Assembly: GCA_042095375.1 (NCBI GenBank)
Contig: JBELBJ010000001.1
Coordinates: forward strand, 44,945-108,944
Length of the DNA stretch: 64,000 nt
Direction: 5' to 3'
Source: Marinoscillum sp.
GTDB lineage: Bacteria; Bacteroidota; Bacteroidia; Cytophagales; MED-G16
Part shown: positions 52,744-59,342 of the stretch, one piece after another
Layout of the letters: every line of letters starts with the position of its first letter
Position numbering within the stretch: the first letter of the stretch is position 1
Program-made: the position numbers and the translations under genes
The notes under the pieces: model-generated
What the model was told of the DNA's origin: nothing
Databases searched by the model: none
Seen by the model: only the letters and a program-made list of their open reading frames with translations

Positions 52744-54870
52744 ATGAATGAAATGTTATTATACCTTATACCTGGGTCAGGTATTGTTGCTCTATTGTTT
52801 GTTTATATAAAAAATAAATGGGTAGCATCAAAAGAAATTGGTTCTGAAAAAATGGAAAGAATTGCACAAAATATTTCTGATGGTGCAATGGCATTTTTAA
52901 GAGCTGAATACAAAATATTATCTGTCTTTGTTTTAATTACAGCTGTACTACTAGGATTCAAAGGAGAAAGTGAGGGAACAAGTTATCTTGTTGCAGTATC
53001 ATTTATTGTGGGAGCATTATGTTCAGGGCTTGCGGGTTTCATAGGTATGAAAGTAGCAACTAAGGCAAATGTAAGAACAACTAATGCTGCTAGAGAATCT
53101 CTTGGAAAAGCATTGGAAATAGCTTTTTCAGGTGGTGCTGTAATGGGACTAGGGGTAGTTGGTTTAGGTGTTCTTGGATTAGGATCACTTTTTATAATTT
53201 ATAGTAATTTATTTCAAGATATAGATACAGTTATAAAAGTTATTTCAGGGTTCTCTCTTGGTGCTTCTTCAATAGCACTATTTGCAAGAGTTGGAGGTGG
53301 TATATATACTAAAGCTGCTGATGTTGGAGCAGACTTAGTTGGAAAAGTTGAAGCTGGTATTCCAGAAGATCACCCACTTAATCCAGCAACAATTGCAGAT
53401 AACGTAGGAGATAATGTTGGAGATGTAGCCGGAATGGGAGCAGATTTATTTGAATCATTTGTTGGTTCAATAATTGGAGCTATGGTACTAGGCGCTGCAT
53501 TTATAGGCCTTCAGGAGTTTTCCGGTATTGAGACAAATGCTATTTTACTTCCTTTGTTTATAGCTTCAACGGGAATTATAATGTCAATTATTGGAACCTT
53601 ATTTGTTAGAGTGAAAGAAGGAGGAAGTCCACATGCTGCATTGAATGCTGGGGAATTCTCATCTGCTGGTTTAATGATAGTAGCTACCTTTTTTCTTATA
53701 GATTATTTTCTGCCTGATGCTTGGGTTTTAAACGGAAAAGAATATACGTCAATGGGTGTTTTTGCTGCAACTATTGCAGGATTACTAGCTGGACTAGGAG
53801 TTGGAAAAATTACAGAATATTATACTGCAACTGGTAAAGCCCCAGTTAAATCAATAGTTAAACAATCTGATACTGGTGCTGCTACAACAATTATTTCTGG
53901 ACTTGGAGTTGGTATGATGTCAACTGCAATTCCAATACTTCTAATTTGTGCTGCAATTTTAACTTCATTTTATTTTGCAGGACTCTATGGTATCGCAATT
54001 GCTGCAGTAGGGATGCTTGCTAATACTGGAATCCAATTGGCTGTTGATGCATATGGTCCAATATCAGATAATGCAGGTGGAATTGCAGAAATGGCTGAAC
54101 TACCACCAGAAGTTAGGGAAAGAACCGATAAGTTAGATGCTGTTGGTAATACAACTGCAGCTATAGGTAAAGGGTTTGCTATTGCATCTGCAGCATTAAC
54201 TGCCTTAGCATTATTTGCAGCGTTTATGCAAACTGCTAAAATTAGTACTATTGATATTTCAAATCCAATTGTTATGACAGGGCTTTTAATTGGCGCCATG
54301 TTGCCATTTGTATTTTCAGCACTTTCAATGAATGCCGTTGGTAAGGCTGCAATGAGTATGATCGAGGAAGTTAGAAGACAGTTTAATGAATTACCAAAAC
54401 TAAAAGCTGCATTAAAAATTATGAGAAAATATGATTCTGATCTATCAAAAGCATCCAAAGCTGATATGAAAATTTTCAATGAAGCTGATGGAGTTGCTGA
54501 GTATAGTAAATGTGTTGAAATTTCAACAAAAGCTGCTCTTAGAGAAATGGTTCTTCCGGGGCTAATGGCAATACTTGTTCCAGTTGGAATTGGCTTTTTG
54601 GGAGGCGCTGAAATGCTTGGTGGTCTACTTGCTGGAGTAACATCATCTGGAGTACTCATGGCTATATTTCAATCTAATGCTGGTGGGGCTTGGGATAATG
54701 CAAAAAAAATGATTGAAGAACAAGGAAGAAAAGGAAGCGATGCTCATAAAGCTGCAGTTGTAGGAGATACAGTAGGCGATCCTTTTAAGGATACATCTGG
54801 ACCTTCACTAAATATTTTATTAAAATTAATTTCTGTTGTAGCTTTAGTTATAGCACCACTTTTAATTTGA
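52744..54870 (+). CDS. hppA: Membrane-bound ion-translocating pyrophosphatase, K+-dependent subfamily signature
   Basis: 708 aa with DNVGDNVGD and [10 protein letters not shown] motifs (Ala at the K+-dependence position). It is collinear with M-PPases. Confidence 0.96.
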
Positions 54871-55763
54871 TGATAGAGAAAGAGAAAAAAATTAAAAAAA
54901 AAAAATTAGGAAATTATCCATTCCTTAGTGTAATTTTCAGCGTTTCTCTTTCCCTATTTTTGCTCGGAATTTTTTCTATTTTATTAATTTCATCTTTCAA
55001 GATGAAAGAAACAATTCAAAAAAATATTGAATTAAATATTTATTTGAATAAAGTTGTTTCATTGAATGATATTGAGAGAATTAATAAAATTATACTTTCT
55101 AAAAATTATGTTTTGAATAAAGAAGAGTCGTCAATTTTATTCATATCTAAAGAAAAGGCTGCAGATGAATATTCTAATGAGCTGGGGGAAGATTTTATAA
55201 AGTTTCTAGGTCAAAACCCATTAAGAGATTTGTTTATTTTAAAAATAGATCCTAATTACTTTGAAAGAGAAAAGTTAGTAGAAATTGAAAAAGAACTATT
55301 GGGAATTAATGGAATTTATGAAATTACTTACCCTAAAGATTTGATTGATGATATAAATAATAATGTAAACAAAATAGGTTTAATTTTGACAGTTATATTC
55401 TTTATTTTACTTTTCATATCTAGCATTTTGATTAATAATACAATTAGACTTGCTTTATTTTCTCAAAGATTTTTAATTAGAAGTATGCAACTTGTAGGTG
55501 CAACCTCATTATTTATTCAAAAACCATTTCTTATTAGAGGAATAATTTATGGTATCATTTCTGGGACCTTATCTTCGATGTTTTTATTTGTAGTTTTAAA
55601 ATTTTTAAATTCTAGGATGGAAAATATTATGGGTATCATAGATTCAAAAAGTTTTTTAATTATATCTTTAAATATGGTTTTAATAGGTATTCTAATTGTA
55701 TCATTTAGTACATATAATTCTGTAAATAAATATTTAAATTCTTCATTAGACGATTTACACTAA
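54870..55763 (+). CDS. ftsX: Cell division protein FtsX-like permease
   Basis: About 297 aa with the FtsX topology (TM1, large periplasmic loop, three C-terminal TMs). The ATG at 54870 overlaps the hppA TGA by 1 nt; the ORF track uses the TTG at 54867. Confidence 0.85.
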
Positions 55764-55776
55764 TTTTAAAAAATTA

Positions 55777-55986
55777 ATGAATAACAAATCCAACCTTCCA
55801 TTTGACAAATCAAACTATAAAATCATGATTATTGGCGTAATTTGTATTGCACTTGGCTTCATAATAATGACATTAGATCAAGAGGATTATGGATTTGGAT
55901 TTCTAGGACTTACCCTTGGTCCAATAGTTGTTCTCCTAGGTTTTATTATTCAGTTCTTTGCAATTTTTTATAATCCTAAAAATTAA
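55777..55986 (+). CDS. DUF3098 family small membrane protein
   Basis: 69 aa with two TM helices, in the typical Bacteroidota position between ftsX and uppP. Confidence 0.7.
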   Translation: MNNKSNLPFDKSNYKIMIIGVICIALGFIIMTLDQEDYGFGFLGLTLGPIVVLLGFIIQFFAIFYNPKN

Positions 55987-57474
55987 ATGAACAGTTGGGA
56001 AGCATTTATTCTTGGAATAATTCAAGGATTAACTGAGTTTTTACCAATTAGCAGTAGTGGTCATTTAGAGCTTGGTTCTTATTTACTAAATACTAATACT
56101 TCAGAAAATTTATTATTTACAATTGTTGTACATATTGCAACTGCACTTAGTATTATAATTGTTTTTAAGAAAGATATTCAACAAATTTTATACTCTTTAT
56201 TTAAGTTTTCAAATAATGAAGACACTCAATTAATTTTAAAAATAATATTATCTAGTGTACCTGTTGGTTTAATTGGAATTTTTTTTGAAGAAAAAGTAGA
56301 AACATTATTTAATGGTAATATTCTTCTTGTAGGCTTAATGCTAATAATCACATCAATTATTTTAGCTCTAACTCAAATACAAAAAAAAAGTTCGAAAAAA
56401 AAAGTTTCTTTTTTTTCTGCTTTCATAATTGGTATAGCACAATCAATAGCAATTTTACCTGGAATTTCAAGATCTGGAATAACAATTTCCACAGCTTTAT
56501 TATTAAGTATAGATAAAAAAGAAGCTACAAAATTTTCATTTTTAATGGTACTTGTTCCAATATTTGGGATTATGATTATTAAATTATTTAAAGGTTTCAG
56601 TTCTGTAGAGTCTTTGTCAAGTGATATAGAATTAAGTTCTTTAATAATAGGTTTTATTTCAGCATTAATTAGTGGAATAATAGCCTGTAAATGGATGATA
56701 AAAATAGTTCAAAAAAGTAATTTGATCTATTTTGCGATTTATTGCTTAATAATTGGTTCATTCTCAATTTTTTCAAGCTTTAACGATTTGGGATCTAAAG
56801 AAAAAGAAATTTTCACAATAGAACCTCTTCTTCCAGTACAAGAATTAAAAGAAATAGCCTTAAAATCATACCCCCCAAGAGAAGATAATTTAGAAGATAA
56901 ATCTCGTGAACTAACTGATATTTATAAGTTAGATCCATCAATAAAACTTGATATAAGATATGCCACAAAAAATAATTTTATGCAAACACCATTTTATGAT
57001 AAACCTCGAGCATTTTTGATTACTGACGCTGCTAAAATGTTAATAAAAGTTCATAAAGAATTAAATAATTATGGATATGGAATAGTAATATATGATGCAT
57101 ATAGACCTTGGTTTGTTACAAAAATGTTTTGGGATGCAACACCAGATTCATTAAAAAATTTTGTAGCAGATCCATCATTAGGATCTGTTCATAACAGAGG
57201 CTGTGCAGTAGATATTGGAATATATAATATTAAAAATGGAAAAACAATTCAAATGATTTCAGGTTATGATGAATTCACTGAAAGAGCATATCCTTCATAT
57301 AGTGGAGGTACAAAAAGAGAAAGAGAAAATAGAAATCTTTTGATTAGTACAATGAAAAAATATGGATTTGAAGTTTACAAATATGAATGGTGGCATTATG
57401 ATTTTAAATTATGTAAAAACAAAATTATGAATTTAGAATTTAATGAGATTGACTCAATAGTAAATTTAAATTAA
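55987..57474 (+). CDS. uppP: Fusion protein: undecaprenyl-diphosphate phosphatase (UppP/BacA) plus a C-terminal M15D D-alanyl-D-alanine dipeptidase (VanX/DdpX-like) domain
   Basis: One uninterrupted 495-codon frame; I checked the junction at 56761-56820 by hand. Residues 1-264 are full-length UppP (GLTEFLPISSSGH, PGISRSG). After a ~45-aa linker, the C-terminal ~190 aa carry SVHNRGCAVD (SxHxxGxAxD) and EWWHY of the VanX/DdpX family. Confidence 0.85.
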   Translation: MNSWEAFILGIIQGLTEFLPISSSGHLELGSYLLNTNTSENLLFTIVVHIATALSIIIVFKKDIQQILYSLFKFSNNEDTQLILKIILSSVPVGLIGIFFEEKVETLFNGNILLVGLMLIITSIILALTQIQKKSSKKKVSFFSAFIIGIAQSIAILPGISRSGITISTALLLSIDKKEATKFSFLMVLVPIFGIMIIKLFKGFSSVESLSSDIELSSLIIGFISALISGIIACKWMIKIVQKSNLIYFAIYCLIIGSFSIFSSFNDLGSKEKEIFTIEPLLPVQELKEIALKSYPPREDNLEDKSRELTDIYKLDPSIKLDIRYATKNNFMQTPFYDKPRAFLITDAAKMLIKVHKELNNYGYGIVIYDAYRPWFVTKMFWDATPDSLKNFVADPSLGSVHNRGCAVDIGIYNIKNGKTIQMISGYDEFTERAYPSYSGGTKRERENRNLLISTMKKYGFEVYKYEWWHYDFKLCKNKIMNLEFNEIDSIVNLN

Positions 57475-57903
57475 TTCCTCAGCCTCGACTATTGATTCTT
57501 CAAACTGTTTTCCAATTTTAAAAATTTCATCTCTTTTAAGGTTTAATTTCTGATTTATATCCTTATAAAAATCTATATTTTTTTCTTCAATTTTTTTATT
57601 CATAGGATATGAATCATAAGGAAATTGATCACTAAAATTTTTCATAAAACTCATCATTGACATGTTTGATTCCTTTAAATTTTGAATAGCTAAATCAATG
57701 TTAGAATCAATCATTTGTTTCTCAGACAAACCCTTTTCTAAGGAATTAACGGTTGACATTTTTTTCATAACTAAATCATGTTGCTCAATAATCTCAGATA
57801 ACAAAGACATATTTTCAGAATGGATATTTGAAATATCATTTGAAGTTGATGTGCATCCAACAAAAAATAAAAGTATTAAAATAGATAAAAGTAATTTTTT
57901 CAT
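57466..57903 (-). CDS. Met-rich helical lipoprotein, unknown function
   Basis: 145 aa with a lipobox (LFFVGC) and predicted helical repeats with Met clusters (HDLVMKKMS, SNMSMMSFMKNF). It is 2 nt downstream of the barrel gene. Its 3' end overlaps uppP-ddpX by 9 nt, convergently. Confidence 0.6.
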   Translation of the reverse strand: MKKLLLSILILLFFVGCTSTSNDISNIHSENMSLLSEIIEQHDLVMKKMSTVNSLEKGLSEKQMIDSNIDLAIQNLKESNMSMMSFMKNFSDQFPYDSYPMNKKIEEKNIDFYKDINQKLNLKRDEIFKIGKQFEESIVEAEELI

Positions 57904-57905
57904 AA

Positions 57906-59342
57906 TCAGTGATGTTTATTTGATCCAGGTGAAAATTGTAATCCAATAACAAAATTATTATCTACTCCCATCTGAATTCCATTATAATTTTGGAGCAAAG
58001 GTAAAAAATATTCAATACCAATTCTAATATTTTTTAATTTTCCATAAGGCGGTAAAATATTTGTTCCAATACTTGAATTAAAAACATAAAAACCGTAATT
58101 ATAAGCATTAGATTCAGGTACAATATTTGAAGTTAATTCAGGATCGTTACCTCTTATTTTATTAGAGAATTTATTTTGCAAATTCAAACTCAAACTTATC
58201 CAATTTGAGATTTTTACTGCAGCCCAATAGTTTACATCTAATATATTTCCAAAACTATAATCATTAGAGTTCTTTCCTATATGAACCTTATATGATGGTT
58301 GAAGTCCAAAAGAAAATTTTTCATATTGAAAAAAAGTAGTAAATCCAAGGTTAGTGTTCCAAGTTCCAGAACCTATTTGCATGTTATAAGGAAGTTTAGT
58401 AATACTAGAAGAAGAATACTCATCATTAAAATTTATAGATCCTATAGGAAAACTTATTCCTATATTTAAATGAGTTTTATTTCTACTTTTATCAACAAGA
58501 TTATAAAGAGCTGTAATATTAATATCATTAATTCCAGATGATTTAGGTTTAAAAGATTGATTTTTTTTTGAAAGCAAATTCATAGTTTTTAAAGTGAAAC
58601 CTATTGAGGCCATTAAATTTATTTTAGTTGACATACCATACATGAAGCCAACTTTATGAGATTCAACTCTATTTGATTCACTAATTAAATTATAGCTGTT
58701 AAATATATCTTCAATTTTTACTTCTGAATTTCCATTTAGATTACCTGACATATTTTTAAATATGTATCTGTAACTAATCATCAGACCTCCCTTATCATGA
58801 AAGTGATCTCCAGTTATATTTATAGGAGCATGTGAGTCTGGCCTTGAATAATCCCAGAGATTTAGTTCCATTTTTTTAAAGTGGTAATTAATATCTATGA
58901 ATTTATCCTCCCTATTAAATGACTTTTCTAGAATTAATTTTAATAAATTATTTACAATAATTTCAATTGTTCTATCTGTCTCTTTTGCCCTATCAGATAA
59001 AAAAGATGCTACAATTTTATCATCATTTTCCTTATCAATTATTACACCTTTAAAACTTTCAACAACTAAATCAATTTTATTTTTAAAAGACCAGCCATAA
59101 GATATGGATATAAAATATCTAGGTTTATCATTTCTTACAATTATATTATTTTTTTTAAATTCTTTAGAAAATTTATTTGAAACTATGCCCTCTCCAAATC
59201 CAAAAGATTTATCTAAATTAATTTCATCAAAAATTTCCAATTCTATTTTATGTTTTTTTAGTATTTTATCACTAAATACATCTTGGGCAAAAGAAAGTTT
59301 AGATGAAAATAGAAAAATAAAAAAAATCATAATCTTCTTCAT
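57906..59342 (-). CDS. Outer-membrane beta-barrel protein (MetA-pathway/transporter-like family) with an extra N-terminal domain
   Basis: 478 aa with a signal peptide (..KLSFAQD). The C-terminal ~310 aa have alternating beta-strand patterning and the block RPDSHAPINITGDHFHDKGGLMISYRYIF, followed by LPYNMQIGSGTW. I recognise these from Bacteroidota/Proteobacteria barrels annotated only as 'transporter'. Confidence 0.6.
   Translation of the reverse strand: MKKIMIFFIFLFSSKLSFAQDVFSDKILKKHKIELEIFDEINLDKSFGFGEGIVSNKFSKEFKKNNIIVRNDKPRYFISISYGWSFKNKIDLVVESFKGVIIDKENDDKIVASFLSDRAKETDRTIEIIVNNLLKLILEKSFNREDKFIDINYHFKKMELNLWDYSRPDSHAPINITGDHFHDKGGLMISYRYIFKNMSGNLNGNSEVKIEDIFNSYNLISESNRVESHKVGFMYGMSTKINLMASIGFTLKTMNLLSKKNQSFKPKSSGINDINITALYNLVDKSRNKTHLNIGISFPIGSINFNDEYSSSSITKLPYNMQIGSGTWNTNLGFTTFFQYEKFSFGLQPSYKVHIGKNSNDYSFGNILDVNYWAAVKISNWISLSLNLQNKFSNKIRGNDPELTSNIVPESNAYNYGFYVFNSSIGTNILPPYGKLKNIRIGIEYFLPLLQNYNGIQMGVDNNFVIGLQFSPGSNKHH

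Follow-up and report, generated by a model that had tools for sequence, protein, structure and literature searches.

Why is an enzyme that regenerates the lipid carrier of cell-wall synthesis found in one polypeptide with a D-Ala-D-Ala dipeptidase-type peptidase, and what could such a protein do? The question is raised by a gene in a 64,000-nucleotide stretch of Marinoscillum sp. DNA (GenBank assembly GCA_042095375.1, contig JBELBJ010000001.1, positions 44,945 to 108,944, forward strand), which is referred to here as the window. The original prediction, made from the letters of the window, described the gene as UppP (BacA), the undecaprenyl-pyrophosphate (C55-PP) phosphatase, fused in frame to a VanX/DdpX-type peptidase of the M15D subfamily (uppP::M15D, Table 1). 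Our analysis indicates that the gene most likely encodes a single bifunctional inner-membrane protein in which two well-known enzyme families are combined. The fusion is real, conserved and mis-annotated, and capture of a membrane anchor in a streamlined genome is a plausible ordinary explanation for it.

One reading frame with two complete domains

The open reading frame (ORF) starts with ATG and runs uninterrupted for 495 amino acids (aa). In Pfam, residues 6-258 match BacA (PF02673) with an E-value of 7.7e-72 and 242.5 bits (cut-off 33.4), covering positions 1-256 of the 257 in the profile. Residues 306-472 match Peptidase_M15 (PF01427, D-Ala-D-Ala dipeptidase) with an E-value of 1.4e-27 and 97.2 bits (cut-off 27). 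Among solved structures the N-terminal half finds E. coli UppP (5oon/6cb2, E = 2e-32) and the C-terminal half finds VanX (1r44, E = 9e-20). An AlphaFold2 (AF2) model of the whole protein was obtained with a mean predicted local distance difference test score (pLDDT) of 77.8 and a predicted template modelling score (pTM) of 0.51, and it was compared with known folds using Foldseek. The model matches UppP structures 5oon and 6fmt (E = 1e-11, TM score on the target (TMt) 0.81-0.87), with a predicted fold of six transmembrane helices and two re-entrant helix pairs. The top match other than UppP is VanX 1r44 (E = 1.3e-9, TMt 0.69, 30% identity); VanY, VanXY and LdcB are matched far more weakly (TMt ≤ 0.56, E ≥ 1e-3). 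The best NCBIfam models for the protein are those of UppP and of DdpX/VanX, and every one of them scores under its equivalog cut-off. The reading of the gene as a complete UppP and a complete VanX/DdpX-type M15D peptidase in one frame is thus confirmed by the ORF, Pfam, PDB and fold matches. The motifs on which that reading was based were located at residues 13-26 (QGLTEFLPISSSGH), 158-164 (PGISRSG), 400-409 (SVHNRGCAVD) and 467-470 (EWWH).

Recurrence of the fusion and selection on its two halves

A large protein database, clustered at the 90% level, was searched for proteins carrying both Pfam domains. At least 119 clusters of 485-495-aa proteins were found, with 57 to 100% identity to the query, and they come from NCBI, JGI, ENA, Tara, Logan and MetaClust. 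The identical protein (P0001) is present on nine contigs of up to 136 kb. A single amplified genome (SAG), 'uncultured Marinoscillum sp. AG-343-C10' (locus L002), shares 16 kb of collinear sequence with the window (94% nucleotide identity), the identical junction included. The fusion is also found in two loci from metagenome-assembled genomes (MAGs), L001 (59% identity) and L081. In a scan of 185,579 species-representative genomes, at least two fusions (L001 and L002) are among the best 80 loci. The fusions carry the source names Cytophagales bacterium, Flammeovirgaceae bacterium TMED290, Marinoscillum sp. and Bacteroidota bacterium; Marinoscillum is placed by NCBI in the Cytophagales, family Reichenbachiellaceae. 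The domain-architecture search that had been proposed for other genomes therefore shows that the fusion recurs, and its named sources are marine planktonic Cytophagales. It appears to have arisen once, in an uncultured clade of this group.

An exhaustive search with the peptidase part alone covered 1.84 billion representatives at 50% identity and returned 5012 relatives, 472 of them at E < 1e-30. Among the 150 best-scoring representatives listed, one (P0159) has the UppP architecture. When clustered at 50% identity, the fusion proteins all fall under a single representative. Another relative, P0252, has a length comparable to the fusion, and its BacA domain is absent.

Public records name the fusion proteins 'undecaprenyl-diphosphate phosphatase' or 'hypothetical', or enter them as split genes. 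At L081 (2233-3702 in JAQWRL010000023.1, assembly GCA_029243745.1) a frame of 489 aa is intact; the public call consists of its last 233 aa, named 'M15 family metallopeptidase', and UppP is uncalled. The JGI entry P0146 is a comparable 233-aa call. A separate M15D gene in relatives of the window, as suggested by the 233-aa entries P0143 and P0146, was rejected as a gene-calling artefact, since these entries start inside the fusion frame and the L081 frame is intact.

Purifying selection acts on both halves. In a comparison of the window with L002, the ratio of nonsynonymous to synonymous substitution rates (dN/dS) comes to 0.155 in the UppP half and to 0.128 in the peptidase half. The GC content at third codon positions is 0.117 and 0.121, respectively.

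The UppP half

The UppP half keeps the nucleophile Ser, the Glu and His, and the Arg of PGISRSG. When BacA1 is aligned with E. coli BacA, Q13 corresponds to E17, E17 to E21, S22/S23 to S26/S27 and H26 to H30. Residues Q13, E17, P20, S22, S23, H26 and P158-G164, including R162, are invariant in 43 family members, and the same BacA1 residues are present in all 73 stand-alone UppP loci from the genome scan, nearly all of which are labelled Bacteroidota. The fusion resembles E. coli BacA (5oon/6cb2) in the full-length match, both motifs, the predicted fold and a charge topology with periplasmic C-terminus. It differs from it in a C-terminal extension of 230 residues and at two positions, where Gln13 (codon 56023-56025) stands for Glu17 and Cys253 (Y252-C253 at 56740-56745) for Arg261. 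Arg261 of E. coli BacA is described in the structure paper as buried and essential, joining the two re-entrant loops. Decay of the UppP half, which these two substitutions might suggest, was ruled out. Cys occupies the Arg261 position in 72 of the 73 stand-alone loci (Thr in the remaining one) and in both other fusion loci, and Gln occupies the Glu17 position in 73 of 73 stand-alone loci examined (L003-L080). The two residues are therefore a lineage trait of Bacteroidota UppPs and no mark of decay. Residues 1-264 are most likely an ordinary Bacteroidota UppP, predicted to act as a C55-PP phosphatase.

As a separate observation, the Cys/Gln state of Bacteroidota UppPs indicates that the active-site scaffold published for E. 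coli UppP is not universal.

The peptidase half

The catalytic core aligns collinearly with E. coli DdpX, an enzyme characterised as a D-Ala-D-Ala dipeptidase (33% identity, E = 1e-33, three gap positions in 168 residues). With DdpX and enterococcal VanX it shares the zinc site His-Asp-His, the Glu base and Arg71, a VanX residue implicated in helping substrate binding. All family members have H402, D409, H470, E467 and R373, and DdpX shares these residues. Loss of the zinc ligands, a possibility for which an alignment had been suggested, is contradicted by their invariance across 43 aligned family members. The equivalents of VanX Y21, D68, R71, S114, D142 and E181 are likewise invariant in the family (Y325 = Y21, S400 = S114, D428 = D142). 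In the mutagenesis literature on VanX and DdpX, Y21, D142 and S114 are binders of the free amino and carboxyl ends of the dipeptide, and D68 is counted with them.

No match to PF02557 (VanY) was found for the window protein in Pfam at E ≤ 0.01. Several relatives, including the fusion representative P0159, have weak PF02557 matches, mostly under the family cut-off. Judged from its NCBIfam scores, the peptidase belongs to a distinct exported subfamily that lies outside the DdpX and VanX equivalogs.

The junction and the probable origin of the peptidase module

Stand-alone Bacteroidota UppPs terminate at 261-267 aa, right behind the last helix. On the peptidase side, residues 275-305 (IFTIEPLLPVQELKEIALKSYPP...) match an element, TFRIxPxRPxxEL..AL...PP, that is found upstream of the catalytic core in all close peptidase relatives, directly after their signal peptides or upstream domains. 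F276, I278 and P280 of this element are invariant in the family. The whole FxIxP-helix-PP element, of about 30 residues, is not present in the cytoplasmic E. coli DdpX. Since the stand-alone UppPs end where they do and the element aligns with the peptidase relatives, the linker is confined to about residues 265-274. The AF2 model has a low-confidence stretch within it (pLDDT < 50 over residues 269-274). The hydrophilic linker of about 45 residues in the original prediction is thus for the most part an element of the peptidase module, and the real linker is about 10 residues long.

A lipobox-like motif, [LIMF]-x-[GS]-C, occurs at the junction in 30 of the 119 family clusters, at the point where stand-alone UppPs stop. 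The Cys-bearing clusters belong to several sublineages (examples are P0019, P0022-24, P0028-31, P0033, P0037, P0048, P0049, P0062 and P0077). The remaining clusters have Ser or Phe at the Cys position. In the window protein this residue is F266, which does not make a lipobox. The Ser and Phe codons at this position are each one base away from a Cys codon. The last UppP helix runs from the inside to the outside (N-in/C-out) with a Lys-rich loop ahead of it, as in a signal peptide. The motif may be a relic of a lipoprotein donor, and in the members that have it the Cys could be a candidate site of Lgt/Lsp processing.

The closest relatives of the peptidase module (50-54% identity, the N-terminal element included) are extracytoplasmic proteins. 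Those of about 250 aa have Sec signal peptides, P0173 (LPAC) and P0186 (ALAC) are lipoproteins, and those of about 350 aa have an extra N-domain. Most relatives are longer (about 650-830 aa, or more than 1000 aa); in these a signal peptide comes first, then a domain of the PF00144 serine beta-lactamase/DD-peptidase family, then M15D. Among the variants, P0197 has two TonB_C domains and P0160 has M15D in tandem. The relatives come from Planctomycetota, Acidobacteriota, Gemmatimonadota and Bacteroidota. The statement that the two domains are normally separate proteins is thus half true, as this M15D subfamily regularly forms the C-terminal part of exported proteins with several domains. From these alignments the M15D module is a self-contained, habitually exported and habitually fused unit, and its fusion to many unrelated partners argues for this self-contained character. 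An adjacent pair of uppP and stand-alone M15D genes in sister lineages, considered as a precursor of the fusion, was rejected: in the 73 other loci, the 8 kb on either side of uppP contain no stand-alone M15D gene.

The relatives with PF00144 and a C-terminal DdpX-like M15D form a large exported family of about 650-1200 aa that is uncharacterised. Examples are P0164, P0165, P0168, P0172, P0174, P0188, P0193 and P0276, and loci L058, L065 and L077. Further variants carry ceramidase-like or PHB-esterase-like additions. No description of this family was found in the full-text literature.

Predicted topology

In crystal structures of E. coli BacA the N- and C-termini are periplasmic and the active-site cleft opens to the periplasm (PMC5852022, PMC5861054). 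A hybrid in which BlaM is attached to Phe273, the last residue of E. coli BacA, makes cells resistant to ampicillin (PMC4641660). The fusion family keeps the corresponding charge pattern: the mean number of Lys and Arg residues is 12.2 in the loops homologous to the cytoplasmic loops of E. coli BacA versus 1.2 in those homologous to the periplasmic loops, and a Lys-rich loop precedes H10. No hydrophobic 19-residue window was found beyond residue 262 (Kyte-Doolittle maximum 0.64), and thus no further transmembrane segment. The periplasmic C-terminus of UppP, the kept charge pattern and the exported relatives together argue that the peptidase is periplasmic and that UppP has taken the place of a signal peptide. 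Homology and computation predict a periplasmic location for the peptidase. The original prediction had left the side of the membrane open, and of its two options the outer face is favoured by the E. coli BacA C-terminus, the BlaM fusion, the positive-inside charge and the exported relatives.

Proposed function and alternative explanations

The reading that we favour, with moderate confidence, is that of a normal UppP carrying a tethered, PcgL-like periplasmic D-Ala-D-Ala dipeptidase, with independent active sites and with UppP serving the peptidase as anchor and export signal. The UppP half would dephosphorylate C55-PP to C55-P in a cleft open to the periplasmic leaflet. Its last helix would exit to the periplasm, and the peptidase would begin about 10 residues later, tethered to the membrane. 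The module would be derived from the exported (Sec or lipoprotein) M15D family. In the ancestor of the clade, its insertion behind uppP would have gone with the loss of its signal sequence, and UppP would have become its export signal and anchor. The peptidase would cleave free periplasmic D-Ala-D-Ala (possibly also D-Ala-D-X) to D-Ala, either to salvage products of peptidoglycan turnover or for scavenging. The two active sites probably work independently. Residues conserved specifically in the fusion clade are found at 3 of 78 positions on the periplasmic face of UppP versus 7 of 109 in the membrane core. A co-evolved docking surface on UppP was rejected since the periplasmic face is not enriched. 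This, and the many other fusion partners of the module, argues for independent halves.

Several points weigh against the tethered dipeptidase. Canonical transpeptidation releases no free periplasmic D-Ala-D-Ala, which poses a problem for the source of the substrate. The tether of about 10 residues near the membrane and the PF00144 DD-peptidase-like partners of the relatives also fit a peptidoglycan-stem substrate. Both halves fall short of the equivalog cut-offs in NCBIfam: the UppP half scores 196 bits with TIGR00753 (cut-off 217.5), and the peptidase half scores 133.9 of 176 bits with DdpX NF007557 and 85.2 of 320 with VanX NF033115. The exported M15D subfamily is uncharacterised and its public names are automatic. 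The moderate confidence of the AF2 model (pTM 0.51) leaves the geometry between the domains unsupported.

Three functional alternatives were considered, and all of them were ranked under the tethered dipeptidase. The one that survives best, and that we still regard as unlikely, is a VanY/VanXY-like D,D-carboxypeptidase, which would remove the terminal D-Ala, or the D-Ala-D-Ala pair, from lipid II or from growing pentapeptide stems near the site of C55-PP release and so tune cross-linking. VanY and VanYn are a precedent, being membrane-anchored extracytoplasmic M15 enzymes with SxHxxGxAxD and ExxH that act on pentapeptide precursors. The very short tether, the PF00144 serine DD-peptidase/beta-lactamase-family domains joined to the relatives and the weak PF02557 matches of some of them (including P0159) point the same way. 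However, the window protein itself has no such match at the threshold used, its fold is nearer to VanX than to VanY, VanXY or LdcB, its core aligns collinearly with the dipeptidase DdpX, and invariant residues stand at the positions of VanX Y21, D142 and S114, with their presumed role at the dipeptide ends. The VanXY-like action on lipid II that the original prediction had offered is accordingly left without positive support, the core being nearer to VanX than to VanY or VanXY.

In the second alternative, less probable again, cleavage behind the last UppP helix would free a soluble peptidase (a lipidated one in the members with Cys). Two separate mature proteins would result, with UppP in the role of an oversized signal peptide. 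The signal-peptide-like orientation of the last helix, with its Lys-rich loop before H10, is consistent with this, and so are the [LIMF]-x-[GS]-C motif exactly at the junction in a quarter of the clusters, the stand-alone UppPs that stop at this point without a Cys, and the lipoproteins P0173 and P0186 in the donor family. Against it, Ser or Phe replaces the Cys in the window protein and in about 75% of the family, so that lipoprotein processing is not a general mechanism. Nor is cleavage by Lsp or signal peptidase I inside a protein of 10 helices known as an established route.

A bolder combination of these ideas is quite improbable in our judgement. With the peptidase held within about 10 residues of UppP, carrier recycling would be coupled to the removal of D-Ala-D-Ala from lipid II or from new glycan strands at the place where they are polymerised, as a new control point of cross-linking that possibly replaces low-molecular-weight penicillin-binding proteins, and UppP in the Cys-bearing relatives would double as a cleavable lipoprotein signal peptide.

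The third alternative, true functional coupling of the halves, is very improbable. The peptidase might, for instance, dock over the UppP cleft, or both halves might be recruited together to the peptidoglycan synthase complex, so that one half controls or supplies the other. The fusion has been kept across a clade diverged to 57% identity with each half constrained, both enzymes are predicted at the periplasmic face and act on metabolites of the peptidoglycan cycle, and the gene lies in a tightly packed string with ftsX; all of this would fit. The lack of clade-specific enrichment on the periplasmic face of UppP speaks against coupling, as do the variable periplasmic H8-H9 loop and linker, the many unrelated fusion partners of M15D and a pTM that supports no confident interface.

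Finally, an artefact (mis-assembly, read-through of two genes by sequencing error, or a decaying pseudogene), which the separate 233-aa 'M15 family metallopeptidase' entries might suggest and which had been raised as a concern at the junction, is hardly credible, as those entries begin inside the fusion frame, the intact junction is found in the SAG, in several MAGs and in hundreds of contigs that stem from independent projects, and dN/dS is far under 1 for each half.

Gene context

The features of the fusion and its neighbours are listed in Table 1.

Table 1. Coordinates in the window of the uppP::M15D gene, its motifs and the neighbouring genes
Feature	Position	Strand	Basis or remark
ftsX-like gene	54867-55763	+	Pfam
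DUF3098 gene	55777-55986	+	Pfam
Whole fusion gene uppP::M15D	55987..57474	+	495 codons + stop
UppP/BacA domain, residues 1-264, predicted six transmembrane helices and two re-entrant helix pairs	55987..56778	+	PF02673, PDB, AF2 model
BacA1 motif QGLTEFLPISSSGH	56023..56064	+	Alignment to E. coli BacA, invariant in family
BacA2 motif PGISRSG, R162 = E. coli R174	56458..56478	+	Alignment, family conservation
Inter-domain linker FNDLGSKEKE, residues 265-274	56779..56808	+	End of stand-alone UppPs, low pLDDT, junction alignment
Conserved N-terminal element of exported M15D subfamily, residues 275-305, FxIxP + helix + PP	56809..56901	+	Alignment with relatives
M15D (VanX/DdpX-type) zinc dipeptidase core, residues 306-495, predicted	56902..57471	+	PF01427, VanX 1r44, E. 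coli DdpX
YRP, R373 = VanX Arg71	57100..57108	+	Alignment, family conservation
SVHNRGCAVD; S400 = VanX S114, H402/D409 = zinc ligands His116/Asp123	57184..57213	+	Alignment, conservation
EWWH; E467 = catalytic base Glu181, H470 = zinc ligand His184	57385..57396	+	Alignment, conservation
145-aa lipoprotein-like gene, signal sequence ending FVGC	57466-57903	-	Convergent with fusion
478-aa outer-membrane-like gene	57906-59342	-	Weak PF13557 match

The genome is tightly packed, with 26.9% GC. Head to tail, the genes hppA, ftsX, DUF3098 and the fusion follow closely on one another (52744-55990), with an overlap of 4 bp between hppA and ftsX; the stop codon of DUF3098 abuts the ATG of the fusion (TAAATG). 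Bacteroidota in general have the conserved gene order ftsX-DUF3098-uppP-truB, in which truB comes directly after uppP. Only in the fusion clade (the window, L001, L002 and L081) do the M15D module and a convergent gene pair lie between uppP and truB. The pair overlaps the 3' end of the fusion by 9 bp. It is present in L001, L002 and L081 and is missing from all stand-alone uppP loci. Its sole family match in Pfam is the weak one to PF13557 (E = 2e-4), and none was found in NCBIfam. No paralogue of either half was found elsewhere in the window. A scan for promoters and terminators over 52.4-60.3 kb gave counts equal to the shuffled expectation.

Some further observations concern the neighbourhood and the loci used for comparison. 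The H+-pyrophosphatase is 94% identical in L001, whereas the neighbouring genes are 53-66% identical. A 224-aa antisense ORF within the H+-pyrophosphatase gene (53985-54659, minus strand) is of low complexity, rich in Ala, Ser, Pro and Ile, and is almost certainly no gene. L014 (a Verrucomicrobiota MAG) and L026 (a Roseobacteraceae MAG) are short contigs with a typical Bacteroidota-type uppP, and L026 also has DUF3098 and truB in the Bacteroidota order. Both look like bin contamination.

Comparison with known systems and implications

DdpX and VanX have the same core as the fusion peptidase. They are, however, soluble and cytoplasmic and are without the FxIxP-helix-PP element, whereas the fusion peptidase is predicted to be periplasmic and membrane-tethered. 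The locus also has no van or ddp operon context, unlike the DdpX gene, which adjoins the transporter genes ddpABCDF. Salmonella PcgL, as described in a paper citing the original reports (Hilbert, 1999; Mouslim, 2002), is a periplasmic D-Ala-D-Ala dipeptidase of the VanX family that permits growth on the dipeptide. Compared by this description, PcgL is the best functional analogue of the fusion peptidase, differing from it in being soluble, stand-alone and PhoP-controlled. VanY and VanYn are zinc D,D-peptidases that carry SxHxxGxAxD and ExxH and are held by an N-terminal anchor at the outer face of the cytoplasmic membrane. They differ from the fusion in their M15 subfamily (PF02557), a single-helix anchor, pentapeptide precursors as substrates and a much weaker similarity in fold and sequence. 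The nearest relatives of the module are the PF00144-M15D proteins, such as that of Telmatocola sphagniphila (WP_213498054.1), in which M15D is likewise C-terminal and extracytoplasmic. The partner there is a soluble serine hydrolase bearing a signal peptide, whereas in the fusion it is a polytopic membrane enzyme.

Each of the two families was already known, as were a periplasmic homologue of VanX and M15 peptidases anchored in the membrane; the combination of UppP with M15D appears to be new. In the full-text literature searched we found no paper describing a UppP-M15D protein, in line with the original remark that no such architecture was known.

The fusion alone overturns no view of cell-wall synthesis. 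If the proposed arrangement is true, the protein would be nature's version of the BacA-BlaM fusion made in the laboratory and would back, in a distant phylum, the contested periplasmic location of the UppP C-terminus. It would also be a case of an exported enzyme that traded its signal peptide for an entire polytopic membrane protein. Under annotation as 'UppP' only, or as split genes, the peptidase activity is overlooked in an abundant group of marine Cytophagales. Beyond this clade, the fusion would point to a large and uncharacterised exported family of DdpX-like enzymes (the 472 representatives at E < 1e-30, mostly fused to PF00144). The existence of such a family suggests that periplasmic breakdown of D-Ala-D-Ala and other D-peptides may be common in environmental bacteria.

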